A stretch of 32,000 nucleotides of DNA, taken from the NCBI GenBank assembly GCA_937907055.1, contig CALCTW010000107.1, positions 4,985 through 36,984 of the forward strand, in the 5' to 3' direction. Both the position numbers and the translations under genes were made by a program. Positions 1-32,000 of this stretch are shown here, piece after piece. How positions within the stretch are numbered: the stretch's first letter is position 1; the number at the start of each line of letters is the position of its first letter. The notes under the pieces were generated by a model. It made no database searches and was not told the origin of the DNA. It worked only from the letters and a program-made list of their open reading frames with translations. Source of the DNA: an uncultured Clostridia bacterium. GTDB taxonomy: Bacteria > Bacillota > Clostridia > Christensenellales > Aristaeellaceae.

Positions 1-105
1 TTCCGCCCGTTCGGCGGACAGAACGCGAGAAAAACATCAAAACGCCCTTCTAAAAGTGATCTTCTCTTCAAAGATCAGGCATAGAAGGAACTTGAAAGGA
101 TCATT

Positions 106-834
106 ATGCAAGTCGAACAAACTTATTTCATCGGCAGCGAGGACACCGGCGCGGACAACGCCATGTCCGATAAATTCATTCTGGAAGCGCTCGGCAATAC
201 CGCCTGCAAGCATGCCACACTCTCCGGCCAGGGCGTGGACGACCGCGATCAGAACCATCTTGCCTGGGTCGTCACCAACTGGAAGATCGAGGTCCTTTCC
301 CGTCCCCGTATGTGTGAGACGGTCAAGGTACGCACCTGGATCCAGCAGAGCGACCGTCTGCTCTCCAAACGCGATTTTGAACTCTATAATGATAAAGATT
401 AGCTGATCGCCCGCGCCTCCTCTGTCTGGATGGCGATCAATCTGAACACCCAGTTCCTCACGCGCATCACCCCGGCGCTTCTGGCTCCCTACGAGCCCGA
501 ACCGGAGCATACCGTATTCCCCGCGGATGCTGTGTTCACCGATCTGAACACGCTTTCCCTTCCGGCGGAAAACTTCGATATCTACACCATTCCCAAGGCC
601 ATGATCGACTGCAACGCCCATGTGCACAACTCCTCTTATCTGGACATTGCCATGCAGGTGCTGCCGGAGGGGCCGGATACTCTTCCCTTCGATCATCTTC
701 AGATCTCCTACAAGAAGGAGATCAAGCCCCGCGCGACCATCAAGCTGGAATACGCGCGGAGCGAAGGCCGCCATTATGTCTTCTTCAAGGGTCTTGCGGA
801 TGATACCCTGCACGCCGTGCTGGAGCTGTATTGA
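106..834 (+). pseudogene. Acyl-ACP thioesterase (double hotdog, FatA/B-like), 242 codons, interrupted by one in-frame TAG at 400-402 (pseudogene under the standard bacterial code, or read-through/recoded)
   Basis: ORFs 106-402 and 430-834 share one frame, and the frame is open from 403 onward. The joined product MQVEQTYF..HLAWVVTNWKIEV..YNDKD*LIARASSVWMAINL..CNAHVHNSSYLD..LELY has the length and both hotdog halves of bacterial acyl-ACP thioesterases. RBS GAAAGGA lies 6 nt before ATG 106; terminal TGA at 832-834. Confidence 0.8.
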
Positions 835-866
835 CCTTTACAGCCTGTTCTCTTTATAAGCATCAT

Positions 867-902
867 AAAACAACTGCCGCCCGATCACGGACGGCAGTTT
901 TC
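867..902. terminator. Bidirectional intrinsic terminator between convergent thioesterase and permease genes
   Basis: Stem AACTGCCG (872-879) / CGGCAGTT (892-899), flanked by AAAA upstream and TTTT downstream. Confidence 0.7.
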
Positions 903-915
903 GTATTGATTGGGT

Positions 916-2091
916 TTACAGCGCCTTCAAAAGCATCATGAAGGCCACCAGGATGATCAGGAACGCGAAGTTGAACGCCGAGAACAGCAGCACATAGCGG
1001 CCGCCCTTCCCGGGATTGTGCTTCCTGTATTCGCGGAAGGTGATCAGGCTGGCCAGCGAGGCGATCAGTGTACCGACACCGCCGATATTGACACCCACCA
1101 GCAGATCGGCGTAATTCTCCGTGAACTGTGAAAGCAGGATGGCGCTGGGCACGTTACTGATGCACTGGCAGGAAAGCACGGAGGAAAGCAGCGTGGAGTT
1201 CTCCATCAGCCCTCTGAAAAGCTCCTGCACAGCGCCGATCCGCGCCATGTTGCCGGCAAAGACGAAGAAGAACACGAAGGTGAACAGCAGCGTGTAGTCC
1301 ACCATCTTCAGAGCCTTGCGGTCCATCACGAACAGCACAGGCGGGATGACGATGAGGCCGATCCAGTACGGAATGAAACGGAAAACGATGACGATCGCCA
1401 GCGTGAAGAGCAGCAGATAGATGACCGCGCGGCCGCGGTTGAAATCGATCCGCTCATCCGGCAGCTCAAGCGGTTCGTTTTTCACAAATACCAGACAACA
1501 GACGGTGATCAGCGTCACGCTGAGCAGAAACGGCGGCGCCATGATGCTGACGAACTCTGCCGTGGGGATATTGAAATGCGAATACAGATACAGGTTCTGC
1601 GGATTGCCGAACGGCGTGAGCATGCCGCCCAGATTGGCCGCGATATTCTGCATGATAAAGGTAAAGGCCATGTATTTTTCTTTTTTTGTGGTGGTCAGTA
1701 CCAGAAATCCCAGCGGCAGGAAGGTGAGCAGCGCCATATCATTGGCGATCAGCATGCTGCCGATGAAGGTGATATACACCAGCGCCAGCACAGCCATCCG
1801 CGCGTTCCGGAACAGCTGGATCACCTTTCTGGCCAGCATGAAGAAGAAATTGATATTCTTCAGCGCGCACACCACCGCCAGCACACAGAAAAGGCAGGTG
1901 AGGGTCTTGTAATCAAAGTAATCGATGTACTTTTCATCCGGCGGAATGATGAACGCGGTGATGACCGCCGCGCACAGCGCGATGCACATGACCACATTCC
2001 GCTTGACGAAGCCGAACGCCCGCTTCAAAAAGGGTTTCCCCTGCTTCGCCGGAGCGGCTGTCAAAGCCCCTTCTGTATTCTCTTCCTTCAT
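916..2091 (-). CDS. Multi-pass membrane permease, ArsB/NhaD/citrate-transporter superfamily (YbiR-like)
   Basis: Long hydrophobic ORF with about 10 predicted TM segments and a GGMLTPFGNPQNL motif typical of this permease superfamily. I trimmed the ORF-track start (2184) to ATG 2091 (MKEENTEG..) because the upstream part overlaps a leader downstream of a consensus promoter. Stop is TAA. Confidence 0.6.
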   Translation of the reverse strand: MKEENTEGALTAAPAKQGKPFLKRAFGFVKRNVVMCIALCAAVITAFIIPPDEKYIDYFDYKTLTCLFCVLAVVCALKNINFFFMLARKVIQLFRNARMAVLALVYITFIGSMLIANDMALLTFLPLGFLVLTTTKKEKYMAFTFIMQNIAANLGGMLTPFGNPQNLYLYSHFNIPTAEFVSIMAPPFLLSVTLITVCCLVFVKNEPLELPDERIDFNRGRAVIYLLLFTLAIVIVFRFIPYWIGLIVIPPVLFVMDRKALKMVDYTLLFTFVFFFVFAGNMARIGAVQELFRGLMENSTLLSSVLSCQCISNVPSAILLSQFTENYADLLVGVNIGGVGTLIASLASLITFREYRKHNPGKGGRYVLLFSAFNFAFLIILVAFMMLLKAL

Positions 2092-2276
2092 ATACCGTTC
2101 ATCTCTTTCTTTACTGATCTCCGGCCTTCCGGAGGAACTGATAGATCCCGATCGGCGTATATCCTTGAACACGCGGCCCGGCAATCCGTCAGATCCTCAG
2201 CAGAATATGCTTCTCCGCCGGCACTGCAAAGCCCAAGCCCTGTCCTGCAGGGCTTTCCGGGCGCAAAGCCCACACG
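2092..2276 (-). promoter_or_regulatory. About 185-nt GC-rich structured 5' leader of the permease gene (unclassified; riboswitch-like alternative pairings)
   Basis: On the minus-strand RNA, GGGCUUUGC occurs twice. AAAGCCC can pair with GGGCUUU, while the overlapping AAGCCCUG pairs with CAGGGCUU. There is also a CUCCGG-AAGG-CCGGAG hairpin just before the RBS region. Confidence 0.35.
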
Positions 2277-2305
2277 ATTTTACCGCCTGTCCCCCCCTTT
2301 GTCAA
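2277..2305 (-). promoter_or_regulatory. Sigma-A type promoter of the permease gene
   Basis: Minus strand reads TTGACA (2305-2300), a 17-nt spacer, then TAAAAT (2282-2277). Confidence 0.6.
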
Positions 2306-2371
2306 TCATTATTGCTCTGCCTTATGTCTATCACTTTTGTAGATAAATACAATCCGAATACAATTAACCTA

Positions 2372-2400
2372 TTGACTCGGTAGGTATTTGATGATAAAGT
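2372..2400 (+). promoter_or_regulatory. Sigma-A type promoter of the Met/Cys leader ORF - metY unit
   Basis: TTGACT (2372-2377), a 17-nt spacer, then TAAAGT (2395-2400). Confidence 0.6.
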
Positions 2401-2431
2401 AAAGACACTTCAAAGAAAGGAGGCAGACACC

Positions 2432-2526
2432 ATGAAGAAGAGCACCTTCACCCGTGAGAGCATGATGATGCGAATGGACATGTGCATGTGCATGTGTCTT
2501 CATTTCGTGTGTGTCTGCAGCCGTTG
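2432..2526 (+). CDS. 31-aa Met/Cys-rich small ORF, candidate regulatory leader peptide for metY
   Basis: RBS AAAGGAGG ends 8 nt before ATG 2432. Translation is MKKSTFTRESMMMRMDMCMCMCLHFVCVCSR, with stop TGA at 2524-2526. The ORF is below the length cutoff of the supplied ORF track. Confidence 0.55.
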
Positions 2527-2550
2527 ATCTGTAACGGTATCTCTCCTGAC

Positions 2551-2581
2551 AGGGGCAGCACACGCTGCCCCTCTTTTATTT
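2551..2581 (+). terminator. Intrinsic terminator (attenuator) between the leader ORF and metY
   Basis: AGGGGCAGC (2551-2559), ACAC loop, GCTGCCCCT (2564-2572), followed by CTTTTATTT. Confidence 0.7.
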
Positions 2582-4003: not shown

Positions 4004-4028
4004 TCATCTGAATATTCCTTTTATTGCA

Positions 4029-6479: not shown

Positions 6480-6494
6480 TCTCTTTATTCTTTC

Positions 6495-8567: not shown

Positions 8568-8596
8568 TTGGTTTTTACTTCAAAGCATGTTATAAT
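8568..8596 (+). promoter_or_regulatory. Promoter of the amidase gene (extended -10)
   Basis: TTGGTT (8568-8573), a 17-nt spacer, then TGTTATAAT with -10 at 8591-8596. Confidence 0.5.
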
Positions 8597-8717
8597 CTTT
8601 TTGAATTACCATGACACGATATCCCACTGTCAATGATAACCCGTATATATCCGGCGTGCCGGAAAACAGGATCAGACAAGCGTCTCTGACGATGACCGTT
8701 TAAAGGAGAAACACCGC

Positions 8718-10154
8718 ATGTATAATGTACTGGAAAAGAGCATCCTGCAGCTGCAATCCGATATGGCCGCGGGTGTTACCACCTCCGAGGAGATCACCTT
8801 GGGCTACCTGCAGCGCATTGCCGCACTGGATCAGGACGGGCCGAAGCTGAACTCCGTGCTGGAGATCAATCCGGATGCCGTTTTTACGGCGCGGGCGATG
8901 GACCGTGAACGCCGTCTGACCGGCGCGAGAGGTTCTTTGCACGGCATTCCCGTGCTGCTGAAGGATAATATCTCTACCGGCGACAAGCAGCACACCACCG
9001 CGGGGGCCGAAGCGCTGGCTGATCATTTCGCACTGGCGGACGCGCCGGTCGTAAAACAACTGCGCGCCGCCGGAGCAGTCCTCTTGGGCAAGACCAATCT
9101 TTCCGAGCTCGCGCGTTTTCTGAATACCCAAATCCCCAATGGTTACAGCGCGGTCGGCGGACAGACCCTGAACCCCTACGGCAAAGAGATCGATCCGTTG
9201 GGCAGCAGCACCGGTTCAGCCGTCGCGGCCGCCATGTGCTTCTGCGCGGCCGCTGTAGGCACAGAGACCTCCGGCTCCATCATCTCCCCGGCCAGCGCGA
9301 ACGGCATCGTCGGCTTGAAGCCGACGGTCGGTGTTGTCAGTCGTTCGGGTATCGTGCCCATCAATTCACAGGATACCGCGGGGCCGATGGGGCGCACAGT
9401 CGAGGATGTAGCCGTGCTGCTGAACGCGCTGAAGGGACAGGACACAGACGATCCGGCCACCCTGTGCACGGATGCGGAAGTACCGGAGGATTACACCGCT
9501 TTCCTGAACAGCGGCGCGCTCCGGGGCGCAAGGCTGGGCATCCTGATGCCGCAGGCCGGGTGGTTGAGCCGGGAACAGCTGGATCAGTACACCTCCGCGC
9601 TGCAATACCTCACCGAAGCCGGCGCTTCGATCATGACCGCTGAACTTTCGCCCGTACGCCCGGAAGCGGAGTACCTCACCGCGCCCGTCATGCAGTATGA
9701 ATTCAAGCGCTACATGGATGCCTATCTGGCCCGGTATTGCTCTCTGCCTCAGATCCGCACGCTGCATGATATCGTGTGCTATAACAACGCGCACGCCGCT
9801 ACCGCCATCCGCTACGGCCAGGATATTCTGGAGGAATGCGATCTGCGTACCACAGGCCGCATGACCGAACCGCAGTATCTGCTATAGAAGCATCGCGCGC
9901 TTACCGAAGCAGGGCCTCAGGGCATCGATCGGGTCCTGCGTGAGAATGCGCTGGACGCGCTGGTATGCCCGGCTGCCAACGCGGTGGCCGCCATGGCCGG
10001 ATACCCCATCCTGACCGTGCCCGCCGGTGTCGCGGCGGACGGCAAGCCCATCGGGCTCTCCTTCATCGGCAGCGCCTTTGAAGAAGGAAAGCTCTTAGGC
10101 TATGGCTACGCCTTTGAACAGGCTTCACGCCTTCGTGTCCTCCCCTGCCCCTGA
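8718..10154 (+). pseudogene. Amidase-signature family amidase, 478 codons, interrupted by one in-frame TAG at 9885-9887 (pseudogene under the standard code, or read-through/recoded)
   Basis: ORF 8718-9887 carries the catalytic Lys region GIPVLLKDNI and the Ser-cisSer region GSSTGSAVAAA. After the TAG the same frame stays open for 88 more codons to TGA 10152-10154. That stretch encodes the usual amidase C-terminus (..GYPILTVPAGVAADGKPIGLSFIGSAFEEGKLLGYGYAFEQA..). Confidence 0.85.
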
Positions 10155-10251
10155 CACGGTCAGGAAAAACAACATTTTGCTTGCCGTTCACCCGTGATCA
10201 CGGATATCGCGTTCTCTTCCCCATATAAAACATTATGATAAGATCATATAA

Positions 10252-10315: not shown

Positions 10316-10954
10316 TTACACGCGGCTCAGGAAGGTCAGCAGCGCCACCTGCGTATAGATGGAATAGAAAACACCCTGATCATCGCAGCCGTTCTTCAAG
10401 ATCCGCTGCGCGTCCGCCTTTTCCAGCAGCACAAAGCCGTCAAACAGCTCACTGCCCTCCGCGCCGCTCTGCGAAAGCGCGGACAGGTCGTGATCCCGCA
10501 GGGTGATCAGCACCATGGCGTTGCTTTCATCTGTCATGCCGGGGGTGGAAAAGAGGCAGGGGCTGATCATCTCGATGCTGTCGTTTTCCCCCACGGTCAC
10601 GCCGGTTTCCTCTTTCATCTCGCGTACCGCGGTCGCGAAGATCGCCTGTTCGCGCGGCAGCGTTTTATCCTCCGGATCGATCAGCCCGGCCGGTACGCTG
10701 AGCAGGAACTGCCACACCGGATAGCGCCATTCCCGGCTGAGCAGCAACCGCGGCGCTTCTCCGGCGTTTTCCACGATCACCACGCAGCTCACCGCGTCCG
10801 GAAGCATGGCGCGGAAAGCCGCGTCATCCTTCAGCGCCACAAGTTCCTGTTCATCCCGGCGGGTGGCGTCGTAATAATGTCTGCCCTCGCGATACTGAAT
10901 ATCAAATACACGAATAAACTTTTTATCAAACAGCTTTTCCACTTTTGTGTCCAT
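10316..10954 (-). CDS. NUDIX hydrolase (ADP-ribose pyrophosphatase-like)
   Basis: Nudix box region GLIDPED..AVREMKEETGV. I chose the start at ATG 10954 (MDTKVEKLF..) because GAGGAG lies 7 nt upstream and a terminator-like hairpin occupies the longer ORF's 5' end. Stop is TAA. Confidence 0.75.
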   Translation of the reverse strand: MDTKVEKLFDKKFIRVFDIQYREGRHYYDATRRDEQELVALKDDAAFRAMLPDAVSCVVIVENAGEAPRLLLSREWRYPVWQFLLSVPAGLIDPEDKTLPREQAIFATAVREMKEETGVTVGENDSIEMISPCLFSTPGMTDESNAMVLITLRDHDLSALSQSGAEGSELFDGFVLLEKADAQRILKNGCDDQGVFYSIYTQVALLTFLSRV

Positions 10955-10990
10955 CTTGTACTCCTCTTCCATCATCCGCAATCCGGAATG

Positions 10991-11029
10991 ATAAAAGCCG
11001 CGCGCCTCCATCGGAAGTACACGGCTTTT
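10991..11029 (-). terminator. Terminator-like hairpin after the 238-aa secreted protein gene
   Basis: On the minus strand, AAAAGCCG...CGGCTTTT is followed by TTTTAT. The loop is large (21 nt), so it may be leaky. Confidence 0.4.
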
Positions 11030-11044
11030 CATTTTCTGCTCCGA

Positions 11045-11761
11045 TCAGTGTGCTTCCGCGAAAATAATGTCATCCCGCAGACGGTACAGCGTAGCACCGT
11101 ACTTCTTGCGGCAGAATGCTTCCACGAACCAGTCGATATCCTTGTTGGCATTGAACTGCACATTCCCGTAACGGATGCCGTCGCGGCGTTCACCCTTCAT
11201 GTTGCTGTCGCACCAGGTAACGGTATCCGTGGCAGGATCGTAATCCGCAATGAAGACCAGGCTGTGCGCGCCGGTGCCGTAGTAGTAATTCGCCGCCATC
11301 TGGAAATAATCGCCCTTCTGCACCTGCATGAGGAACGCGCGGGCGTTTTCCTGATTGGCCGCCTTGCTGATGGAGGGATCATAGCGGAATTCCGCTGCCG
11401 CGTAGAAGGGATTCCCTTCCGCCGCGCTCACATCCTTCCAGCAAACGCCGTACACATAATCCTTGCACTCCGCCTTGGGCAGGTTATCCGGGATCACAAG
11501 CTGCTTATCCGGGTATTCCGCCATGCGGTAACGGCTGCGGTTCTCATTGAAGAGATACACCGTAAAATTCTTGCACACATAGATGTCCCCGGCATAATGC
11601 GCGCGCTGGGCGCGTCCGCCGGTCTCAATGTACTTCTTTTCCGCCAGATCGATAATATCCTGAATGAACTGATCACGCGCGCTCAGCGTTTCCTCCTGCG
11701 CCAAAGCCACGAAGGGCAGAAGCAGCGCCGCGATCAGCAGTAGAGAAATAACTTTTTTCAT
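11045..11761 (-). CDS. Secreted hypothetical protein, possible papain-like (NlpC/P60- or CHAP-like) Cys/His hydrolase
   Basis: Signal peptide MKKVISLLLIAALLLPFVALA; RBS GGGAGG 8 nt upstream. Candidate catalytic Cys is in GDIYVCKNFT and candidate His is in GTGAHSLVFI. The fold assignment is only a guess. Confidence 0.6.
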   Translation of the reverse strand: MKKVISLLLIAALLLPFVALAQEETLSARDQFIQDIIDLAEKKYIETGGRAQRAHYAGDIYVCKNFTVYLFNENRSRYRMAEYPDKQLVIPDNLPKAECKDYVYGVCWKDVSAAEGNPFYAAAEFRYDPSISKAANQENARAFLMQVQKGDYFQMAANYYYGTGAHSLVFIADYDPATDTVTWCDSNMKGERRDGIRYGNVQFNANKDIDWFVEAFCRKKYGATLYRLRDDIIFAEAH

Positions 11762-11851
11762 TGCTGAATACCTCCCGAGTGATGTTATCATGAACCGAAT
11801 CGCCGGATTTGTAAATACTTCTCGCGAATTTTTACAATCATTCCGCCCGGT

Positions 11852-13348
11852 TCACTCAAAACACCAGGATTCCATTTCGCAGGAAGCGGAAAAAATGAAG
11901 TAAAGATCGTGCTGACCCGTTACCTCCGCCGGAACGGTATAAGCCTCAAAGCTTTCCCCGGCCGGTACCGTGATCTCGCACACCACCGTGCCGCGAACGC
12001 TGCCGTCCCGCGCAACGCGGATGACACACCCCTGTTCGCTGCGGGCGCGGATCGTCATCCGCGCGGAAGCGTGATCGAATGTCACACCGCTGACCTTGAT
12101 CCAGTCCCCGCGGTCGATCTCCGTCACGATGGTCTCACCGTATCCGCGCACATTCACACCGGCCTGATCGCTCATGGTGGCAGCACGTACCGCGGTGAAG
12201 GGATCCAGCCCCTTCAGTTGCGGCACACCGCGCATGGTACCGCTCACCTTCAGCACCTGCGCGTCCGCCGTCACAGTCAGCTTATTGACCATGGGGCTGC
12301 GATAGTTGCCGGTGATCTTCATGCGCTGCTCCACCGGACGGGCGTGATAGAACAGATACCATTGCCCGTTCAGGCTGACGATGCTGTGGTGGTTATTGCC
12401 GTACAGACCGAAGAAATTGCCGATATTCTTGAAGAACTCACCGCCGTAGGTGTAAGGGCCCATCGGATCATCCGCCACCATGTACTCGATCGCGCCGTTG
12501 GTAATGCCCAGCGTGTTGCCGGTGGTGTTCCAGTTACTGCAATAGCTGTACACATACTTGCCGTTGATCTTATTGATCCCGCTGTCCTCAAACACATAAG
12601 GCGCCTCGATGGCTACAGGATCGCAATCCAGCGAGATCATGTCCTCCCCCAGCCGCACAATGCGGGTGGTGCCTGGCATGGCGTCTTTGCCGTTCGGCAC
12701 ACCGCCGCCAAAGGCCAGATAACCGGTACCGTCTTCATCCACCATCACGGCAGGATCGAACAGCCACAGCACATTGGCGCAATTGGGTGTCTCACGGGTG
12801 ATGAGCAGGTGCCCCAGATCATCCCGGAAGGGGCCGGCCGGATCATCCGCCACCAGCACGCCGATGCCGTTTCCGCCGTTGCAGAAATACAGGAAGAACT
12901 GTTCCCTGCCGTTGATGGTCTTATGCGCGGCGCAGGGAGCCCAGGAGCAATTCGCCCATTTGGCGATCCCCTCCGGCCCTGCCACCGGAATGGCGCCGTG
13001 ATCCGTCCAGTTGACCAGATCATCGGAGGAAATGCAGTTGATCTTGTTGATCTTTCCGTAGGTGTTCTCGATCACATTGCCGTCCCTGTCATACTCCACC
13101 ACATCATTGGTGGTATACACATACACACGGCCGTTATACTCCATCACACCCGGATCCGCCCCGAAACGCTGCGTATAGAGCGGATTGTTCTCATTGGTGT
13201 TCTTATAGGACTTTGTCAGTTTGATATCATCAAAGTTCATCATATTCTCCGTTTTCTCCGCGCGGGCCGTGCACACACACAGCCCGGCCGCGATCAGAAA
13301 AGCCGCGAACCTTTTCAGGTTCCCCTTCAGACAGTGATTCATCATCAT
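11852..13348 (-). CDS. Secreted glycoside hydrolase family 43 with C-terminal CBM6-like module
   Basis: Signal peptide MMMNHCLKGNLKRFAAFLIAAGLCVCTARA. GH43 N-terminal motif is NPLYTQRFGADPGVMEYNGRVYVYTTND. The C-terminal CBM6-like region is RGYGETIVTEIDRGDWIKVSGVTFD. RBS AGGAGG overlaps the stop of the upstream ABC gene. The true start could be any of three consecutive ATGs (13348, 13345 or 13342). Confidence 0.8.
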   Translation of the reverse strand: MMMNHCLKGNLKRFAAFLIAAGLCVCTARAEKTENMMNFDDIKLTKSYKNTNENNPLYTQRFGADPGVMEYNGRVYVYTTNDVVEYDRDGNVIENTYGKINKINCISSDDLVNWTDHGAIPVAGPEGIAKWANCSWAPCAAHKTINGREQFFLYFCNGGNGIGVLVADDPAGPFRDDLGHLLITRETPNCANVLWLFDPAVMVDEDGTGYLAFGGGVPNGKDAMPGTTRIVRLGEDMISLDCDPVAIEAPYVFEDSGINKINGKYVYSYCSNWNTTGNTLGITNGAIEYMVADDPMGPYTYGGEFFKNIGNFFGLYGNNHHSIVSLNGQWYLFYHARPVEQRMKITGNYRSPMVNKLTVTADAQVLKVSGTMRGVPQLKGLDPFTAVRAATMSDQAGVNVRGYGETIVTEIDRGDWIKVSGVTFDHASARMTIRARSEQGCVIRVARDGSVRGTVVCEITVPAGESFEAYTVPAEVTGQHDLYFIFSASCEMESWCFE

Positions 13349-13358
13349 GATCCTCCTG

Positions 13359-17231: not shown

Positions 17232-17318
17232 GCCGGTGTGATGGAATTGGCAGACGTAGTGGACTCAAAATCCACCGCTGGCGACAGCGTGCCGGTTCGA
17301 GTCCGGCCACCGGCACCA
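17232..17318 (+). tRNA. tRNA-Leu (anticodon CAA), class II with long variable arm, encoded CCA
   Basis: Acceptor stem GCCGGTG/CACCGGC. Anticodon stem GTGGA/TCCAC with loop CTCAAAA. T-arm GCCGGTTCGAGTCCGGC. Long variable arm; 3' ACCA. Confidence 0.9.
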
Positions 17319-17447: not shown

Positions 17448-18029
17448 ATGAACGCCTTAAAGAAGCAACAGTTGAAAACGCTGTTCCTTTCCACCTTCCG
17501 CCTCAGCGCCTGCACCTTCGGGGGCGGCTTTGTCATCATTCCGCTCATGAAAAAGCGGTTTGTGGATCAGCTGGGCTGGCTGGAAGAGCAGGAAATGCTG
17601 GATCTGACCGCCATCTCGCAGTCCGCGCCGGGGCCGATCGCCGTCAACGCCTCCATCCTGGTGGGCTATCGCATCGCGGGTGTCCCCGGCGCGCTGCTGT
17701 CCGTCCTCGGGTCGGTCCTGCCGCCGCTCATCATCATTACCGTCATCTCCGAGTTTTACCGCCAGTTCCGTGACGCGCCCATTGTCAATATGGCCATGGC
17801 CGGCATGCTGTGCGGTGTCGTCGCCGTGATCCTGGATGTGGTCATCAACATGATCCGCGCGCTGTTTAAGCAAAAACGTGTGCTCCCCTTCTTTGTACTG
17901 GTCTTCTCATTCATTGCCGCAAGGTATCTGAATATCAATATCATTCTCATCATCCTCATCTGCGGGTGCATCGGCGCGGCGGATGTTCTGCTCCGGCACG
18001 GACAGAAAAAGGAGGCAGATAAGCCATGA
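17448..18029 (+). CDS. Chromate transporter family protein (short-chain CHR, first half)
   Basis: MNALKKQQLKTLFLSTFRLSACTFGGGFVIIPLM.. is typical of ChrA/YwrB-like half proteins. RBS AAGGAG. The stop overlaps the next start (ATGA). Confidence 0.8.
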   Translation: MNALKKQQLKTLFLSTFRLSACTFGGGFVIIPLMKKRFVDQLGWLEEQEMLDLTAISQSAPGPIAVNASILVGYRIAGVPGALLSVLGSVLPPLIIITVISEFYRQFRDAPIVNMAMAGMLCGVVAVILDVVINMIRALFKQKRVLPFFVLVFSFIAARYLNINIILIILICGCIGAADVLLRHGQKKEADKP

Positions 18030-22086: not shown

Positions 22087-24069
22087 TCAGGCTTCGTCTT
22101 CGCCGGGGATCACCATGTCGGCAACTTCCTCATCGGGAGCGCTCTGATCCGCCAGAGCTTCCTTCACGGAGAGGGTGATGCGCTTGGCTTCGGGATCCAC
22201 AGCCAGCACCTTGACGGTGACCATCTGACCGACAGTCAGAGCATCTTCCACCTTATCCACGTGGGTCAGAGCGCACTGGCTGATGTGGACCAGACCGTCG
22301 ACACCGGGCTCGAGAGCAACAAAGGCGCCGAATTCACGGATGCGGACGACCTTGCGCTCGATGATGCTGCCAACGGGGTACTTTTCTTCGATGTTATCCC
22401 AGGGCTTGGCCTGCAGATCCTTCAGGCTCAGCTGGATGCGCTCACGTTCACGATCCAGACCCTTCACCTTCACCTGCACTTCATCGCCGATCTTCAGCAC
22501 TTCTTCAGGCTTGTTCACGCGGTGCCAGGCCATATCGGTCACGTGGATCAGACCATCCACGCCGCCCAGGTCAACGAAAGCACCGAAGTCCGCGAAGCGG
22601 CGAACGATACCGGTAACAGTAGCGCCTTCCTCCAGCTTCTCCCACGCGGCAGCCTTCTTGGTGGCGTTTTCTTCAGCCACAACGACCTTGCGGGAAGCAA
22701 CGATGCGCTTTTTCTTTTCATCCACTTCGATGATCTTCAGCTTCATGGGCTGACCAACGAACTGGTCGATCTTTTCAACATAGCGCTGGGCCAGCTGAGA
22801 AGCGGGAACGAAGCAGCGGATGCCGCCGTCAACAGTAGCGATCAGGCCGCCCTTGACAGCTTCCTTACCGGTGGCTTCGATGTACTCGCCGGCCTGGTAC
22901 TTGGCCATGAGGTCTTCCCACACCTTCTTGTTGATGATGTTGCGCTGGCTGAGCAGAACGTTGCCTTCGCCGTCATTGACCTTGACGACTTCGACTTCGA
23001 TCGTGTCGCCGAGCTGCACGTCCTTGTCGACCAGATCTTCCTTCTTGATGATGCCATCAGCCTTATAGCCGATGTTGACGCAAACTTCGCTGTCGGTAAC
23101 CTGAACAACAGTGCCGGTCATTGTCTGACCATTGTGGATGCGGACCATGCTCGCTTCGATGTCAGCCATCAGCTGCTCTTCAAAACTGAGTTCCTCCTTA
23201 ACTTCCTGAGCCAGCTTCTCTTCCATGTCTGTCATGTGTGTAAAAACCTCCTTAAGTGACCAATCCGGTGTACTCGCACCGGCGGTTATTCCTAATAAAA
23301 TATTGTGGGTATCGATCAAGCGCGGCGGTATCTCCTCCGCGCGTTCCACCAGAATGGATTTGGGGCAGTTTTTGAGGCAGATGTCATAAAGCTTGCGCGT
23401 ATTGGCGCTCTGCCTGCCACCCACCACGATCATCGCCTGACAGCGCTTTGAAAGCTCCTCGGCTTCCTTCTGCCGCAGCGCCGTCGCGTTGCAGATGGTG
23501 TCCTTCACCGTCAGATCCGGGAAGCGTGCCGTCAGCGTGTCGCGGACAGATGTCCACAGCGCTCTTGAAAAAGTGGTCTGGCACACCAGCAGGGCATTTT
23601 GCATTTCCGGCAGCGCCTCGGCCTCCTCCACGGAGCCGATCCGCCAACACCGTCCCTTGCGGCACCAGCCGGCTGTAGCCACCACCTCGGGATGTCCTTC
23701 ATCCCCCACCAGGATCACGCTGTTCCCCTGCTCCGTATGCGCCCGCACCAGATCGTGCAGATGCTTGACGGAGGGACAGGTGCAATCGATGACACGCAGC
23801 CCGCGCGCGGCAGCCTTTTCATAGGTTTCCGGCGGTTCTCCGTGAGAGCGAAGGATCAGATATCCTGCCTCCGCCTCCTCAACGCTGTTCACCTGCCGTA
23901 TGCCGCGCGAACGCAGTTTTTTCAAGGCCTCATTGTTATGGATGAGCTCCCCCAGCGTACAGATCGGCATGCCTTCCGCCTGCGCGGTGCTGCCTGCTGC
24001 CAGCGCCAGATCCATCGCGCGCCTCACACCGTTGCAGAACCCGGCATGATCCGCAAGAATAACGGGCAT
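22087..24069 (-). CDS. ispH: Bifunctional 4-hydroxy-3-methylbut-2-enyl diphosphate reductase (IspH/LytB) fused to ribosomal protein S1 (four S1 domains)
   Basis: The N-terminus MPVILADHAGFCNGVRRA..LGELIHNN.. is IspH. From about aa 300 there are four repeats of the S1 OB-fold pattern (G.V..V....V.V..G..G.I). The ORF-track start is 24078 (GTG). The ATGs at 24075 and 24069 are also possible. Confidence 0.85.
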   Translation of the reverse strand: MPVILADHAGFCNGVRRAMDLALAAGSTAQAEGMPICTLGELIHNNEALKKLRSRGIRQVNSVEEAEAGYLILRSHGEPPETYEKAAARGLRVIDCTCPSVKHLHDLVRAHTEQGNSVILVGDEGHPEVVATAGWCRKGRCWRIGSVEEAEALPEMQNALLVCQTTFSRALWTSVRDTLTARFPDLTVKDTICNATALRQKEAEELSKRCQAMIVVGGRQSANTRKLYDICLKNCPKSILVERAEEIPPRLIDTHNILLGITAGASTPDWSLKEVFTHMTDMEEKLAQEVKEELSFEEQLMADIEASMVRIHNGQTMTGTVVQVTDSEVCVNIGYKADGIIKKEDLVDKDVQLGDTIEVEVVKVNDGEGNVLLSQRNIINKKVWEDLMAKYQAGEYIEATGKEAVKGGLIATVDGGIRCFVPASQLAQRYVEKIDQFVGQPMKLKIIEVDEKKKRIVASRKVVVAEENATKKAAAWEKLEEGATVTGIVRRFADFGAFVDLGGVDGLIHVTDMAWHRVNKPEEVLKIGDEVQVKVKGLDRERERIQLSLKDLQAKPWDNIEEKYPVGSIIERKVVRIREFGAFVALEPGVDGLVHISQCALTHVDKVEDALTVGQMVTVKVLAVDPEAKRITLSVKEALADQSAPDEEVADMVIPGEDEA

Positions 24070-24103
24070 TCTCATCACATCCTAAACAGGGCAATACTAC
24101 AAC

Positions 24104-25562: not shown

Positions 25563-26270
25563 TCAGGCGTCCTTACCCTCAAAGCGGCGGCACAGACAAT
25601 ATTTGCTCACTGCCTGCTGCACGGGTTCCGGGCAGGCAAAGGAGCACAGCTCCGCGATATAGGGCGGAAGCACACGGTTATACTTGATCTCCAGGATCAT
25701 CAGATCCTCATTATCCAGCGGGCTGATGGTCGGCACGGCAGGATTGAAGATATCGATGCTGTTCAGACCGCTGCGCAGCTGCATATCAAAGGTGATACGC
25801 ACCTCCTCCGCCGGATGCACATAGGCCTCGCGCAGATAGTCCACCAGCACCACAGGATGCAGCAGCTTGGTGCGCATCTCCTTGTACACATCGCGCAGCA
25901 GACCGTAGCGGGTGTTCTCCAGCCCGCTCGGATCCCCGGCGATCAGCTGATCCGCCAGGTCACGCGGGATCTTCAGGGAACGCTTGGAGATGAAGCTGCC
26001 GTACTTGGTCTTGCACTCCATGAAGATCTCCTTGGAGGAATAATTATAGATGCGCATACGGTACTTATCACGATCCTGGACACCGTCGATCTTATCATAC
26101 AGCGCGTCATCAAACACCGTATCGAAATAGAGGGAACGGATATGATAGTGTCCCCCGTTGCGCACGGCGTTCGCGTCCAGGTTCAGCACGCCCTTGAGAG
26201 AGCGGGACAGCACCTCATACTGCGTACGGCTGATCAGATATTTGTTTTCATGTCGAAGCGCTAAAGCCAT
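25563..26270 (-). CDS. VTC domain protein (polyphosphate polymerase-like, triphosphate tunnel fold)
   Basis: 235 aa. Strand motifs RHENKYLI, HIRSLYFD, KYRMRIYN, MECKTKYG, RITFD and LEIKYN match bacterial stand-alone VTC-domain proteins as I remember them. RBS AAAGGAG. Confidence 0.7.
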   Translation of the reverse strand: MALALRHENKYLISRTQYEVLSRSLKGVLNLDANAVRNGGHYHIRSLYFDTVFDDALYDKIDGVQDRDKYRMRIYNYSSKEIFMECKTKYGSFISKRSLKIPRDLADQLIAGDPSGLENTRYGLLRDVYKEMRTKLLHPVVLVDYLREAYVHPAEEVRITFDMQLRSGLNSIDIFNPAVPTISPLDNEDLMILEIKYNRVLPPYIAELCSFACPEPVQQAVSKYCLCRRFEGKDA

Positions 26271-26291
26271 CGCTTTGCTCCTTTATCAGGG

Positions 26292-27026
26292 TCAGGCGCC
26301 CTGTTCGGTCTGGCAGGCGACCAGCGTGGCGTCATGCACGCCGGGGATCTCCAGCATACGGGCCACGAGGGTGGTGTGCTGCGCCAGGCGGACTTCCACA
26401 GTCATTTCCACACCGTTGCGGGTCATGGTCTGGGAACGCATACGATGACGGGGCGCGATGGAATTCAGCTGACTTTCGATGGCAGGCTCGGCCACTTCAT
26501 CATAGTGCAGCACCAGCAGATAGCTGGAACCATTGGAGAACTTGACATAGTGCAGACCGACGACCACCGCGCACATGCACAGCACAACGATCAGCGCGAT
26601 CAGATAGTATTCAGCGCCCAGCAGGATGCCCATGGTGATGGACCAGAACATGTACACGGTATCCAGCGGATCCTTGACCGCGGTACGGAAACGCACGATG
26701 GACAGCGCGCCGACCATACCCATGGAAAGCGCCACATTGCTGCCGATGGCCATCACGACAGGCGCGGTCACGATGCAAAGCAGGATCAGTGTCATGGAGA
26801 AATTGGGGCTGTACAGCACACCGCGATAGGTCTTGCGGTACACGAAGGCGATCAGCAGACCGACGACCAACGCGGACAGGATGACTGCCACCGCGCTCAG
26901 GGGGCTGAAGTTGGCGAACTGCTGCGCGATCCAGCCCTGGAAGCCGGGCGCGGAGGGAGCGGAAGAGGAAGCGGCGGTGCCGGCAGCGGACGCGGCGGGG
27001 AAAATCGTTTCGATCAGTTCATTCAT
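26292..27026 (-). CDS. DUF4956-family integral membrane protein
   Basis: 244 aa with about four TM segments. The motif GALSIVRFRTAVKDPLDTVYMFWSI is characteristic of DUF4956. A soluble C-terminal tail of about 75 aa follows. RBS GGAGG. Confidence 0.7.
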   Translation of the reverse strand: MNELIETIFPAASAAGTAASSSAPSAPGFQGWIAQQFANFSPLSAVAVILSALVVGLLIAFVYRKTYRGVLYSPNFSMTLILLCIVTAPVVMAIGSNVALSMGMVGALSIVRFRTAVKDPLDTVYMFWSITMGILLGAEYYLIALIVVLCMCAVVVGLHYVKFSNGSSYLLVLHYDEVAEPAIESQLNSIAPRHRMRSQTMTRNGVEMTVEVRLAQHTTLVARMLEIPGVHDATLVACQTEQGA

Positions 27027-27113
27027 GGTTCATAACCTCCGGTGAATTTTCATTTTTTATCGTGCGAGGAAGCCGTGCGGCTCCTGTGATCAGGGGGTGA
27101 GGATCCGTCTGGA

Positions 27114-30100
27114 TCAATCCGCCGGCTTGGGCGGGCAGGGAGAACCGAAGTAGTATTCCATCTGCGCGTTGGACAGACCGAATTGTTTCTGGAACAGGGT
27201 GTAGATGTAATAGGGGCGTTTGTTGATAACATTCTGCAAACGACGGATACGGGTGTTCCAGTAACGGAGCAGACCATCGGCGGAGGAGGGAGAGTCACTG
27301 TTGACCAGCTTGGTCTCCTGCGTCCATTTGACCGCCCACAGCTTGAAGTGCCATTCCATTTCGGGCTCGATCAGCCGGTACAGTTCATCCAGCGTAGTCA
27401 TCATACGGTCGACAGTCAGGTTCTTATAGATGTTGCCGATCTTGGTGTAGAACAGCTCCTGATACTCCGGTACCTCCAGGATCTTGCGGAAGATGACATT
27501 GTTGATCTTCTGCTGACCCATGCCCTCCGGCTTCATGTAGGACCAGGGCGAATCGAAGGCGCTGTTGAACATGCCGTAGTCAAGGTCGAACAGCAGACAC
27601 TTCCATTTGGCGCCCGGGGTGGGCAGCCTGTAGAAGAGGATGTTACCGGGGTCGCTGTTGCCAAAGAACATTTCGATGGCGAACCAGTCCAGATAATTGT
27701 CGATGTCCACGTTCGCGTCCAGATAGGCGCGGTCCGAGGCATTGGTGCCGGGGTTCATGGTCTTGAGCGTGTTCACCATGGCGCGCCATTCGGTGTTGGT
27801 GCCCTGCACCACAGAACCGCTGGCGCGAAGGATGGTGATATCATCCACCTTCTCCAGATCCAGCCCTTCGTGCTGCGCGATACAGTAGCGGTCCTTGCGC
27901 TCACGCATGTTGTAATGGCCGTAGAACGCGCCGTTCAGATACACCACGGTGGGCTGCCAGGCCAGAGAGATGATATTCGTATCCACATAGCGCTCCACCA
28001 GCACGGTCTGGAAGCCGTCCACAAGGCGGGTCCACACACAGTCGTTGCCGGAGTTGCGCAGGGTGAAGCTCTTGTAGAAGCTGTAATCGCGCGGCGTCAG
28101 CGCGTCCTCAAACAGCGGATACTCAAAATACTTGTGACCGCTGCTGGCCTGCGCGCGGATCTTGAAGGACTTCTGCGGCATATCCAGCGAGTAGTCGCCC
28201 AGCAGCGACACCTTCACGCCCTGGCTGATGACGGCGGTCTTATCGCCGCTCTGCTCAAAGACCTCCACATAGCCGGGCCGCGCGATCTTGCCGAATTCGC
28301 GGTAGACCGTGTGCTTGAACGGCAGCTTGCCCGGCTCCTTCACGGCATCAGGACCGTCCGCCAGCATACCGGTGTTCTGATTCCACAGTTCATAGGGATC
28401 CACCACCAGCGAGACCACCCTTACCGTGTGATAGGTGTTCATAATGTAGGTAGCGGTGATGGGATCGGAGGCCTGCAGGCCGGTACGGTACGCCCTCGCC
28501 CGCAGCACCAGATTGTTCTGGATCAGGAACGGGGCGGTATAGACCTCGCTGTTTTCCAGCGTGGGGACGGAGCCGTCCGTGGTATAGCGCACGGTCGTTC
28601 CCTCCGGCACATTGATGCCGACGATGACCTCGCCGGTGTACAGACCGCTCTCAAGCGTGAAGGAAGGAGCCTGGGCATAGCCGACAAAACCGTCTCTGTT
28701 CGCCGCGCCGGGCGTGGCCGTACTATAATAAAAAAAACCGGCAGCGCCTTCGGTGCGCCCGTAGGACACGTCCGTCGGGAGCGCGGGGATGTAGATCCTG
28801 TCCAGCACATTGCCCTGCGGATCGGAAAGTGTCATCATTTCACCGCCTGCCCTTGAAAGAGCGAAAGACGCGTGCAGCTGCGACGCGTCTGTACCGGCGG
28901 ATGCGCTCTTATCCAGCAGCACCACTTTATATTCACCCGGCCAGATCTGCGTTCCCTGCGGGAACTGCCATTTTCGCGGCCAGTTGACATTATCACTCAG
29001 ACCCCACCCGGACAGATCCACCACGGCATCCGTCGGGTTATGGATCTCCACCCAGTCACAGGCAGCCAGCCCGCTGATCGCCTGGGTCTTATCCGCGCCG
29101 CTCATCAGCTCTGTGATGATGACGCGGGTCTTGTTGTTGGCCCGCATCACCTCGTCCGCCTTGGCAATGCCGGCAGAGGTGTTGGGCAGGGTGGGCGTCG
29201 GCATGGTGAAGATCTTCCACTGCAGCGTGTCATAATCGCGGCCGTAACTGACGTCCTTGCCCATGGTCTCGTAGGTGACCTGATCTACCAGCTCACCCGT
29301 GAGGGTGGAAAGGGTAATGGTCTCGCCGTCCGCGCGCAGGCTGAAGTTGGTGTGGGCGAAGTAGGTGCCCTCCTCCACCTTGTTCTTGCCGGAAGCAAAG
29401 ACCAGATAATAACCGTTCGCGGGGATGACCGCGTTTTCGGGGAAGGACCACTTGACGCGCTTGGCGGGATCATCGCTCAGCGCGTAATTTGCCAGGCTGA
29501 TCGGACGATCGGAAAGATTGCGGATCTCGATCCAGTCGCTCAGATCCCCGTCCGCGTCGGGCAGCAGATTGGCCCGGGGCGCGGCGCAGACCTCATTGAT
29601 GACCAGGCTGCTCACATCCACACGGAAGCTTTCAAGGAAAGCGGCGTGTCCGTCAAAGGTATTGGGGAAAAGCGGAGAATAATCATCCGTAACGGAGTAG
29701 GTATCCTCCGGGATGCCGTTCGCGGGATCGGCCAAAGTGAGGATGTAGCTTTCATCTTCATTTAAGATGGGCACATCCACATGCTCAAGCTCACGTCCGG
29801 AACTGTCAAACAGGAAGACCGAGCAGCCCATGGAGGAAAGATTGAACTTGGCATGGAAAACATCGCCCGCCTCACTGCGGTTGACATTATCGCAGAAGAC
29901 GATCACGCGGCCGCCGGCAGGCAGCACATAATCCGGGAAGAAAAACTTAAGACGGTCGCTGCGGTTGGAAAGGCCGGTATTCTGCAGGTTCATGTCGTGA
30001 TCCGTGGTGTTCCACAGCTCCACCCAGTCCACAAATTTGCCCTCTTCATTGGGATACGCGCCGGAATTGGAGGTCATGATCTCGCTGATGCGAAGACCGG

Positions 30101-30272
30101 CGTGATCACCGTCGCCGCCTGCCGCGTTATAGGCCACATTGGCCGGCAGACAGCCGAGACCGCTGATGGCGCTCAGCGCGGCCACCGCGGCGATCAGCGC
30201 GACGACAAGCAGAACAAACGCCACGCCGACGGATGTCTGTTTATGATATTCCCTTCGGGACATTCTATCCAT
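27114..30272 (-). CDS. Membrane-anchored extracytoplasmic CotH-family (atypical kinase) protein with three lamin-tail domains and a chitobiase/hexosaminidase-C-like Ig domain
   Basis: N-terminal signal-anchor VGVAFVLLVVALIAAVAALSAI. Three LTD repeats: LRISEIM..DWVELWN, LVINEV..DWIEIRN and VIITELM..DWVEIHN. Next comes TVRYTTDGSVPT, then the CotH region YSLDMPQKSFKIRA..FTLRNSGND..NYLDWFAIEMFFGNSDPGN. Confidence 0.75.
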   Translation of the reverse strand: MDRMSRREYHKQTSVGVAFVLLVVALIAAVAALSAISGLGCLPANVAYNAAGGDGDHAGLRISEIMTSNSGAYPNEEGKFVDWVELWNTTDHDMNLQNTGLSNRSDRLKFFFPDYVLPAGGRVIVFCDNVNRSEAGDVFHAKFNLSSMGCSVFLFDSSGRELEHVDVPILNEDESYILTLADPANGIPEDTYSVTDDYSPLFPNTFDGHAAFLESFRVDVSSLVINEVCAAPRANLLPDADGDLSDWIEIRNLSDRPISLANYALSDDPAKRVKWSFPENAVIPANGYYLVFASGKNKVEEGTYFAHTNFSLRADGETITLSTLTGELVDQVTYETMGKDVSYGRDYDTLQWKIFTMPTPTLPNTSAGIAKADEVMRANNKTRVIITELMSGADKTQAISGLAACDWVEIHNPTDAVVDLSGWGLSDNVNWPRKWQFPQGTQIWPGEYKVVLLDKSASAGTDASQLHASFALSRAGGEMMTLSDPQGNVLDRIYIPALPTDVSYGRTEGAAGFFYYSTATPGAANRDGFVGYAQAPSFTLESGLYTGEVIVGINVPEGTTVRYTTDGSVPTLENSEVYTAPFLIQNNLVLRARAYRTGLQASDPITATYIMNTYHTVRVVSLVVDPYELWNQNTGMLADGPDAVKEPGKLPFKHTVYREFGKIARPGYVEVFEQSGDKTAVISQGVKVSLLGDYSLDMPQKSFKIRAQASSGHKYFEYPLFEDALTPRDYSFYKSFTLRNSGNDCVWTRLVDGFQTVLVERYVDTNIISLAWQPTVVYLNGAFYGHYNMRERKDRYCIAQHEGLDLEKVDDITILRASGSVVQGTNTEWRAMVNTLKTMNPGTNASDRAYLDANVDIDNYLDWFAIEMFFGNSDPGNILFYRLPTPGAKWKCLLFDLDYGMFNSAFDSPWSYMKPEGMGQQKINNVIFRKILEVPEYQELFYTKIGNIYKNLTVDRMMTTLDELYRLIEPEMEWHFKLWAVKWTQETKLVNSDSPSSADGLLRYWNTRIRRLQNVINKRPYYIYTLFQKQFGLSNAQMEYYFGSPCPPKPAD

Positions 30273-30301
30273 ATATGAATACTCCTGAAATGTTGTTAAA
30301 A

Positions 30302-30334
30302 CAGGTACCGCACAAGTACCTGATCATTATAACA
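30302..30334 (-). promoter_or_regulatory. CotH operon promoter (extended -10) with a 7-bp inverted repeat at the expected transcription start
   Basis: Minus strand reads TGTTATAAT (30334-30326). CAGGTAC-N7-GTACCTG lies at 30322-30302, immediately downstream. Confidence 0.45.
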
Positions 30335-30472
30335 CAAAATACCGCCCAATAAAAGTGCTTCCGTTCGCATTTTCTTGTAAAATCGCCACATAAATATGAA
30401 TAAATGAAGTCAGAAAAACGGCATCCGCGCGCCCGCGGCGGATCAATGCCACATTTTGATCCGTTTTTCCCC

Positions 30473-30501
30473 TGTACAAGCCCACGACCCTTTGATATAA
30501 T
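30473..30501 (+). promoter_or_regulatory. Promoter of the 170-aa membrane protein gene (extended -10)
   Basis: TGTACA (30473-30478), a 17-nt spacer ending in TG, then TATAAT (30496-30501). Confidence 0.5.
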
Positions 30502-30538
30502 GAGATCATGAAAAACGATTCTGAAGGAGTGACGATCG

Positions 30539-31051
30539 TTGTTATATACAGAAAATGATCTGCAGGCTGTAACCGCGCAGATGAAAAAACGCCGTGCCGT
30601 GCTGCTCGCGGTGCTGGGGATCGCCCTGGTGCTGATGGTGCTCAACTATGTCGTGCTTCGCCTGCCTGTCCGCGCGGACATCAAGAGCGGCCACCAGAAT
30701 GATTATCTTTATCTTTATTATGTCATTGCCCTCGCGGCGCTTTTCTTCTCCATCTTCTGGACAGATCTGTTCATGCGCCCGGTCAAGGCCTATCAGAGGC
30801 TGCTCGCGCACGCGCTGCACGGCCGCACCCGTCAGTATGAATACACCTATCGGGATCGCGAGAGCGAGACCGTGATGCGGGACGCTGTCAAACTGGTGCC
30901 GCTCACGATGACCGAGGGCGATCCCAAGGATGAGAAAAACGAAAGACTGCTTTATTACGATGCTCTGCTTCCCTTCCCGGACTGGCAGACCGGCGAGACC
31001 TTGCGCCTCATCACGCATGATAAAGTCATCGTCGGCTGGGAACGGACTTAA
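30539..31051 (+). CDS. Hypothetical membrane protein (two TM segments), TTG start
   Basis: RBS GAAGGAG lies 9 nt before TTG 30539. TM segments are AVLLAVLGIALVLMVLNYVVL and YVIALAALFFSIFWTDLF. Stop is TAA. Confidence 0.55.
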   Translation: MLYTENDLQAVTAQMKKRRAVLLAVLGIALVLMVLNYVVLRLPVRADIKSGHQNDYLYLYYVIALAALFFSIFWTDLFMRPVKAYQRLLAHALHGRTRQYEYTYRDRESETVMRDAVKLVPLTMTEGDPKDEKNERLLYYDALLPFPDWQTGETLRLITHDKVIVGWERT

Positions 31052-31084
31052 AAAACATCGAACAGCACAGGAGGATGATCCCAT

Positions 31085-32000
31085 GGAGAATCAACCGAAT
31101 ATCGTGATTCTGAAGGAACAGCTGGCCGAACTGCAGCAGAAAATGAGCGCGTACAATCACGCGCTGAGCCTGCTCAGCTTTGACGGCGCCACCATCGCGC
31201 CTCGCGGCACCACATCAAACCGCGCGCGTACGCTGGGCGTGCTGAGCGGCGAAAGCTATAAGCTTTCCACCGGTGAAGAAACCATCGCCCTTCTCGAGGC
31301 GCTGGATGATCGCAGGGATGAACTGACCGCCCGTGAGCAGCGCCAGGTGGAAATGCTGCTCAAGGATATCCGCCGGATGCAGAAGATCCCCTTTGACGAG
31401 TATGTCGCCTATCAGGAGCTGCTCGCCGAGGCGGATGACATCTGGCATACCGCCAAGGAAAACAGTGATTTCGCGCTGTTTGAGCCCTATCTTGAAAAGA
31501 TCGTGGCCACCGTGCGCCGGATCGCGCAGCTGTGCGCGCCGGAGAAGGATCCCTATGATTACTGGCTGAACGAATACGAAGAAGGCCTTTCCGCCGAAAA
31601 GTGCGACGCCTTCTTTGCCACCGTGCGTGCCCGTCTGGTGCCGCTTCTGAAAAAGGTGGCGTCTGTTCCTCAGGTGGATGACGCCTGTGTGAAGGGCGCC
31701 TTCACCGATCAGCAGCAGGAGGCGTTCTCCCGCTTCCTGATGGAGCAGATGGGGCTGGACATGGATCATGTGACCCTCGCGACCACCGAACATCCCTTCA
31801 CCACCTCCCTGGGCTCTCATCTGGATGAGCGCATCACCACCCATTATATCTCCGAGGATCTTTCCTCCTCCATGTTCTCCGTCATCCATGAGGGCGGTCA
31901 TGCCCTGTATGACACCGGCAGCGACGACGAACTGGCCTACACCGTGCTGGACGGCGGCGTGAGCATGTCCATCCACGAGAGCCAGAGCCGTTTTTATGAG
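31085..32000 (+). CDS. Carboxypeptidase, M32 family (Taq-like metallocarboxypeptidase), 3'-truncated by the window edge
   Basis: I translated this by hand; it is absent from the ORF track because no stop lies in the window. RBS AGGAGG precedes it. The product is MENQPNIVILKEQLAELQQKM..EHPFTTS..VIHEGGHALYD (HEXXH)..IHESQSRFYE. Confidence 0.8.

Follow-up and report, generated by a model that had tools for sequence, protein, structure and literature searches.

The 32,000-nucleotide stretch analyzed here (contig CALCTW010000107.1; hereafter the window, positions 1 to 32,000) comes from an uncultured gut or rumen Clostridia species, Christensenellales-like and with a G+C content of about 57%, and it carries two genes, for an acyl-ACP thioesterase and an amidase, that are each interrupted by an in-frame TAG codon. 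Its gene list was built from frame analysis of the G+C content at third codon positions (GC3), Pfam scans, and a small codon-usage gene finder; real genes in the window show a clear GC3 > GC1 > GC2 pattern. The list comprises 24 complete open reading frames (ORFs) and a partial M32 peptidase. Over the whole window these ORFs terminate 17 times in TGA (counting a leader ORF of 31 amino acids), seven times in TAA, and never in TAG, a tally given in a preliminary description of the sequence and reproduced by our independent list. The two interrupted genes are placed as follows.

106 to 834, plus strand: acyl-ACP thioesterase gene, 242 codons (Pfam PF01643/PF20791)
400 to 402, plus strand: in-frame TAG at thioesterase codon 99, which is CAG (Gln) in six other strains
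8718 to 10157, plus strand: amidase gene, 478 codons, final stop TGA (Pfam PF01425)
9885 to 9887, plus strand: in-frame TAG at amidase codon 390, a position that is variable in the family and Glu in the closest homologue (84% identity)

Translated through its TAG, the thioesterase reads '...YNDKD*LIARASS...'. The Pfam Acyl-ACP_TE N-terminal domain runs across the interruption and, TAG aside, the product is the same as protein P0138 of another strain. The amidase reads '...PQYLL*KHRAL...' at the corresponding point; full-length homologues of 475–486 amino acids align across the TAG, and all family-invariant residues after it are preserved. With a Pfam domain spanning one site and full-length homologues the other, the earlier claim that two conserved genes are broken by in-frame TAG holds. 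Such codons number two per about 9,800 codons in the window, as against 306 CAG codons.

For a clade background, species-representative genomes were scanned with the ispH-S1 protein, which yielded 80 loci, all from other species; the best, at protein identities of 69–75%, belong to metagenome-assembled genomes (MAGs) of rumen and gut designated 'Clostridia', 'Christensenellaceae', or 'Christensenella sp.'. Across 65 loci of the clade (1.11 Mb, genes called with our own finder), genes stop at TAA 402 times, at TGA 393 times, and at TAG in 33 of 828 cases, or 4.0%; the sequence beyond these TAG stops is non-coding in appearance, and TAG in the clade is thus a real but rare terminator. A junction-spanning homology test for in-frame stops in related species, covering 1.1 Mb, gave no convincing case. 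TAG stop usage of about 4% extends across the whole sampled Christensenellales-like clade (L013–L085), at 48–64% G+C, while two more distant Bacillota loci from the same scan have a far higher TAG share (8/18 and 5/23).

Against the 4.0% background, the probability of finding no TAG among 24 window genes is 0.38, and for the species as a whole, in which none of 37 distinct genes collected ends in TAG, it is 0.22. The window's codon counts (CAG 306, CAA 17, CGA 8, TGG 127, and GAG 300), combined with the mutation spectrum at four-fold sites, where C<>T changes dominate, predict that about 67% of nonsense mutations create TAG. Both window breaks are then expected to be TAG with a probability of about 0.45, and all five nonsense sites of the species, described below, with a probability of 0.13 (0.67 to the fifth power). 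The window pattern on its own is within chance, which bears out the caveat of the preliminary description that a small sample and a stop codon that is often the rarest offer only a hint. Continued coding past a stop was dropped as a test of readthrough, because neighboring genes often share a frame and the test is uninformative.

Exact-protein look-ups led to sister strains on contigs from about ten other samples, 96–99% identical to the window at the nucleotide level, and about 150 kb of sequence from the species was covered; a further scan of metagenome contigs returned no additional contig of the same species (best 58% identity). Between strains, the synonymous divergence per site (pS) is about 0.07 and the ratio of nonsynonymous to synonymous divergence (pN/pS) is 0.03–0.08. 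In this material, in-frame TAG occurs at five distinct sites in at least four assemblies: the two in the window and the three below.

29082 to 29084, minus strand: TAG site in the CotH/LTD (lamin-tail domain) gene at 27114 to 30272; CAG (Gln 397) in the window, TAG in the SRR14246005 strain (L007)
12644 to 12646, minus strand: TAG site in the GH43/CBM6 gene at 11852 to 13348; GAG (Glu) in the window, TAG in the 86-kb contig of ERZ27247138 (L093)
Just past the right end of the window: TAG site in a Peripla_BP-GGDEF gene; TAG at a CAG codon in SRR14246005 (L098) and ERZ27247148 (L099)

The residue replaced at the five sites is Gln (CAG) three times and Glu (GAG) once, and the fifth site aligns to Glu in the 84%-identical homologue; at the four comparable sites, the CAG or GAG of the sister strains is a single mutation away from TAG. 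Protein P0304, encoded on a 7,785-bp contig held by NCBI/ENA, stops at the same residue as the GGDEF TAG, which is thus common to three assemblies. Since that contig probably belongs to the MAG of the window itself, three TAGs fall within about 33 genes of one probable genome; the SRR14246005 strain has two within 6.8 kb, and several strains have no in-frame TAG over 15–23 kb.

Two of the affected loci have features of their own. The 86-kb sister contig lacks the 1.7-kb segment (about 8568–10248) that holds the amidase gene (an insertion relative to L001); there, the GH5 and NUDIX genes lie about 210 bp apart. The nearest homologue of the amidase shares only 84% identity and those that follow are annotated as Erysipelotrichaceae or Solobacterium, a pattern that suggests a strain-specific acquisition. 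The CotH gene belongs to a minus-strand cluster (25563–30272) that is present in all strains and encodes a VTC domain protein, a DUF4956 protein, and a CotH kinase-like protein of 1,052 amino acids with three lamin-tail domains.

Of all single results, that on the shared GGDEF TAG carries the most weight. The TAG-bearing alleles, although from different samples, have in common both the TAG and the local haplotype GAT TCA TAG, where intact alleles read GAC GCG CAG. Because two of them share this haplotype yet differ at 2.7% of bases (pS 0.076), positions near the TAG included, the TAG is as old as the diversity of the species. Over their whole overlap the two alleles are separated by 18 synonymous and 10 nonsynonymous changes (pN/pS 0.16), where about 61 nonsynonymous changes would be expected of a dead gene; downstream of the TAG the counts are nine and four (pN/pS 0.13), with about 30 nonsynonymous changes expected. 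Purifying selection thus acts on both sides of the TAG in the one allele that is shared, and the gene, diverged between TAG alleles yet constrained, is not a pseudogene in decay. Its GGDEF domain is produced either by ribosomes that read past the TAG or as a separate product.

The family offers little precedent for a separate GGDEF product. All of about 120 homologues are single chains of 591–684 amino acids (one marked partial), and the TAG falls at a variable residue just before the invariant P446 and a conserved linker (W453, N454, A460, and L461). The sole in-frame restart after the TAG is a TTG codon 24 codons downstream, without a Shine-Dalgarno sequence; initiation there would lose the family-conserved linker, all of whose residues are retained in the TAG alleles. 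This evidence tells against a separately made domain and leaves a split gene as an awkward alternative. At this gene (L006 1516–3456 on the minus strand, L098, and L099), the TAG-bearing alleles form a distinct class, with pS to intact alleles of 0.15–0.27 as compared with about 0.07 genome-wide and with eight clustered amino-acid changes 30–50 residues upstream of the TAG. This class may represent an imported or long-maintained haplotype.

No decay is seen in genes carrying a private TAG. The branch to the window thioesterase has five synonymous and no nonsynonymous changes, and the SRR14246005 CotH branch has ten synonymous changes and one nonsynonymous change. Either these TAGs are very young or the genes are still constrained, and both translation of UAG and recent gene loss fit the counts. 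Across the species, the same two genes are under strong purifying selection (pN/pS 0–0.03 for the thioesterase and 0.03–0.08 for CotH).

We then accounted for every class of lesion in 35 genes from up to 11 strains, with neutral expectations calibrated on four-fold sites. Synonymous variants confirm the calibration (858 observed, 836 expected, survival about 1), and missense variants survive at 0.125 of the neutral rate (222 observed, 1,780 expected). Nonsense variants creating TAG survive at 0.084 (4 observed, 47.8 expected), whereas those creating TAA or TGA were not observed at all (0 against 23.6 expected, survival 0). The preliminary description had proposed comparing in-frame TAG with in-frame TAA and TGA; the imbalance is there, with four TAG and no TGA or TAA, but that all are TAG is not by itself significant. 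No frameshift was found in this set, the lone within-gene indel being an in-frame 3-bp deletion. Were the TAG alleles null, null alleles of other kinds should survive as well as they do. Between the window and the 86-kb strain, intergenic DNA differs by 25 indels and 139 substitutions in 2,775 sites, while coding DNA differs by no indels and 599 substitutions in 27,533 sites. Applied to coding DNA, the intergenic rate gives about 250 indels, of which about 20 would be seen at TAG-like survival (0.084 of neutral), where none was observed; even with a five-fold lower coding indel rate about four would be expected (probability of none about 0.015), together with about two TGA or TAA alleles. The multi-strain data differ from the prediction of simple gene death in three respects: the lesions are TAG only, frameshifts are absent, and one TAG allele is old and constrained. 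A 5-methylcytosine hotspot, considered for the CotH change (CCAGG to CTAGG, a Dcm-type site), was rejected, as only 1 of 89 CCWGG sites had changed against a baseline of 7.1%.

We tentatively favor the view, to which we give slightly less than an even chance, that this species translates UAG to a useful extent, by natural amber suppression and without full reassignment of the codon. The in-frame TAGs would be genuine single-base changes (CAG to TAG or GAG to TAG) that vary between strains and are not null alleles. UAG would be read through natural amber suppression or leaky termination, with Gln as the simplest candidate for the inserted residue, delivered by a tRNA-Gln with a CUA anticodon or by a near-cognate tRNA-Gln, and weak activity of release factor 1 (RF1) possibly assisting. 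Amber codons would then act as mildly deleterious missense or synonymous variants, and UAG decoding would be ambiguous or incipient, with no completed reassignment of TAG to sense, in a clade whose TAG terminators are already down to about 4%. The species could accordingly be the first bacterium, pyrrolysine apart, with amber suppression or an incipient reassignment of UAG, the codon specifying an amino acid, probably Gln, at least in part and at least in the sub-lineage of the window, a claim that likewise falls just short of even likelihood in our judgment.

Several observations weigh against translation of UAG, and we gather them here. Nonsense variants account for 1.8% of the nonsynonymous total, a share that is usual in bacterial populations, and stop type was rejected as sufficient evidence when taken alone, the all-TAG outcome having a probability of about 0.13 to 0.45. 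Changes from CAG to TAG are about ten-fold rarer than neutral (three observed, where about 48 TAG-creating changes are expected, roughly half of them from CAG), and therefore TAG is no free synonym of CAG. The frameshift expectation rests on an indel rate taken from intergenic DNA. At the GGDEF locus, the TTG codon is specific to the TAG alleles, with CTG in intact alleles, and the 24 codons from TAG to TTG differ between TAG alleles by two nonsynonymous and no synonymous changes, too few to judge and giving no hint of constraint. All five affected genes are of accessory type (thioesterase, amidase, CotH, GH43, and GGDEF), with no hit in a housekeeping gene, and all but one of the five TAGs occur in a single assembly each, as young deleterious alleles would, with the GH43 break found as well on a short Logan contig (sample unknown). 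Neither a tRNA with a CUA anticodon nor a release factor gene or motif was found in the window and 60 retrieved loci. General UAG decoding is known in no bacterium, so that its prior is low (PMC8629427), and our literature search found no report of UAG reassignment in one.

Much of this is also what ordinary amber nonsense alleles would produce, that is, young loss-of-function mutations in dispensable accessory genes, with the GGDEF gene functionally split or its loss adaptive. We regard this explanation as nearly as likely as translation of UAG, somewhat under an even chance. In it the breaks take the form of TAG because, of the codons a single transition away from a stop, CAG is much the most frequent, in line with the 67% expectation, and the CAG or GAG of sister strains at the four comparable sites is the kind of sense codon it calls for; relatives use TAG at 4.0% of their stops, with nothing coding-like after it. 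The private TAGs, the restriction to accessory-type genes, and the lack of any suppressor component in the window and retrieved loci agree with it, as does the amidase, which is missing from another strain and therefore dispensable, and so does the GGDEF TAG, which lies at a domain boundary and is followed by the allele-specific TTG. What nonsense alleles explain poorly is the complete absence of frameshifts and of TGA or TAA alleles, though such losses should be equally tolerated, the strong species-wide constraint on the thioesterase and CotH genes, and the high TAG density in the probable window MAG and in the SRR14246005 strain. They also sit badly with a GGDEF TAG allele as old as the diversity of the species and constrained on both sides, in a family that is invariably a single chain and whose conserved linker a restart would lose. 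The remaining explanations are far weaker. Complete reassignment of TAG to Gln, as in genetic code 15, with loss of RF1 in the species or in the window sub-lineage, is improbable: none of the 37 species genes ends in TAG, Gln is the residue lost at three of the five sites (Glu is replaced at one and aligned to the other), and the GGDEF TAG is stable in a gene under selection, but in-frame TAG amounts to only about 0.02% of codons, the ten-fold deficit of CAG-to-TAG changes and the TAG-free strains would be hard to explain, and just five sites, confined to accessory-type genes and divided three to two between Gln and Glu, occur in about 150 kb. The alternative of amber suppression or reassignment raised in the preliminary description is thus narrowed, with suppression gaining support from the strains and general reassignment left unsupported, given that TAG is rare within genes, that sister strains carry CAG or GAG, and that relatives (60–75% protein identity) terminate at TAG. 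Pyrrolysine decoding, in which pylTSBCD would make UAG ambiguous and stray TAGs tolerated as in pyrrolysine-encoding methanogens, is very improbable. The TAGs are tolerated in unrelated genes, and TAG terminator use of about 4% resembles that of pyrrolysine-encoding archaea, in which amber is kept ambiguous (PMC12626013); no methylamine methyltransferase is among the five interrupted genes, however, the Pfam annotations of the retrieved loci include no pyl gene, and sister strains have ordinary Gln or Glu codons at these positions. Sequencing or assembly errors are the least credible source of the TAGs. Every dataset is a short-read metagenome assembly, but the fragments of the split window thioesterase are on record in assemblies of NCBI, Logan, and ENA, three assemblies of different samples share the GGDEF TAG while differing at other positions nearby, and 27.5 kb of coding sequence contain no indel error.

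UAG reassignment is known from phages, eukaryotes, organelles, pyrrolysine-encoding archaea, and engineered E. coli. The closest parallel is genetic code 15 (TAG = Gln) of crAss-like, Lak, and other gut phages, which shares with our case the codon, probably the amino acid, the gut habitat, and the occurrence of in-frame TAGs at Gln positions. Those phages infect standard-code hosts, carry many TAGs in each recoded gene, and depend on a suppressor tRNA(CUA) (PMC9523058; bioRxiv 10.1101/2021.08.26.457843); here, in contrast, the TAGs are sparse, vary between strains, and lie on a cellular chromosome, with no suppressor tRNA seen. Pyrrolysine-encoding methanogens and some bacteria likewise use UAG as both stop and sense and are depleted in TAG terminators (PMC12626013; bioRxiv 10.1101/2024.09.30.615893), but they do so with pylTSBCD and methylamine methyltransferases, neither of which was seen in the retrieved loci, where the sites are Gln or Glu in sister strains. 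The bacterial reassignments of UGA to Trp or Gly resemble the present case in that a stop codon was captured in a lineage where it was already rare; known bacterial stop reassignments all involve UGA and RF2, never UAG (PMC8629427; PMC13462651). Suppression of amber codons costs little when few genes end in TAG (PMC11903333). As for ordinary nonsense pseudogenes arising by CAG-to-TAG change, the likeness lies in a TAG one base from the sister-strain codon and in the accessory type of the genes, and the difference in the lack of frameshifts, of TGA or TAA alleles, and of downstream decay, and in one TAG allele that is old and constrained. Mechanistically, E. coli supE (a tRNA-Gln with a CUA anticodon) and RF1-deleted recoded strains would serve as models for the reading of UAG by a CUA or near-cognate tRNA-Gln. 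Both are laboratory forms of amber suppression, engineered or lab-selected, and we know of no natural free-living bacterium in an amber-suppressing state.

If UAG is indeed translated, the species would provide a live example of codon capture by the ambiguous-intermediate route, with TAGs coming and going between strains, and would bear on the use of TAG-to-Gln recoding by gut phages. It could also provide natural parts for genetic code engineering (a suppressor tRNA or a weak RF1), and gene callers set to code 11 would be breaking up genuine genes in these MAGs. Should the TAGs be plain nonsense alleles, the case is ordinary and shows that CAG-rich codon usage makes most nonsense mutations amber.

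The genes of the window are arranged as follows.

Left part, plus strand: acyl-ACP thioesterase, Met/Cys-rich leader ORF of 31 amino acids, O-acetylhomoserine sulfhydrylase, GH95, GH5, amidase
Minus strand, among the plus-strand genes of the left part: CitMHS permease
Middle, minus strand: NUDIX, hypothetical protein, GH43-CBM6, two ABC exporters
10316 to 11032, minus strand: the NUDIX protein, 238 amino acids, stop TAA
Stop at 11045 to 11047, minus strand: the hypothetical neighbor of NUDIX, stop TGA; 238 amino acids from the start of the strain orthologue, 248 from the first ATG
17232 to 17318, plus strand: tRNA-Leu with anticodon CAA, the sole tRNA of the window and not an amber suppressor
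After the tRNA-Leu(CAA): two chromate-transporter genes
Right part, minus strand: 156-amino-acid protein, PIG-L, purC, ispH-S1 fusion, plsC, cmk, VTC, DUF4956, CotH/LTD
Plus strand: protein of 170 amino acids

A tRNA search and an Rfam scan of the window, the latter matching the tRNA only, agree with the earlier statement that its tRNA is Leu-CAA and that it has no CUA suppressor. The stop codons previously assigned to individual genes are also right, except that the labels of the NUDIX gene and its hypothetical neighbor had been swapped. These two genes and GH43-CBM6 are consecutive in one reading frame on the minus strand (10316–13537), and their stop-to-stop frames abut: single TGA codons at 11852–11854 and 11045–11047 alone part them, and homologous gene tables list them as separate genes.

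The tetranucleotide CTAG occurs once in the 32 kb, and GATC occurs 381 times, about three times the roughly 125 expected under equal frequencies of four-base words. Immediately upstream of the O-acetylhomoserine sulfhydrylase gene, the leader ORF (2432–2527, plus strand) encodes the Met/Cys-rich peptide MKKSTFTRESMMMRMDMCMCMCLHFVCVCSR and is kept in sister strains. The region 2432–2527 has no Rfam riboswitch match, and from its composition and position the ORF looks like a candidate peptide-leader attenuator for sulfur amino acids. Two genes of the window are fusions: that at 18026–19228 on the plus strand joins the second chromate-transporter half to a PEMT/ICMT-type methyltransferase domain, and that at 22087–24078 on the minus strand joins IspH (LytB) to four S1 RNA-binding domains.

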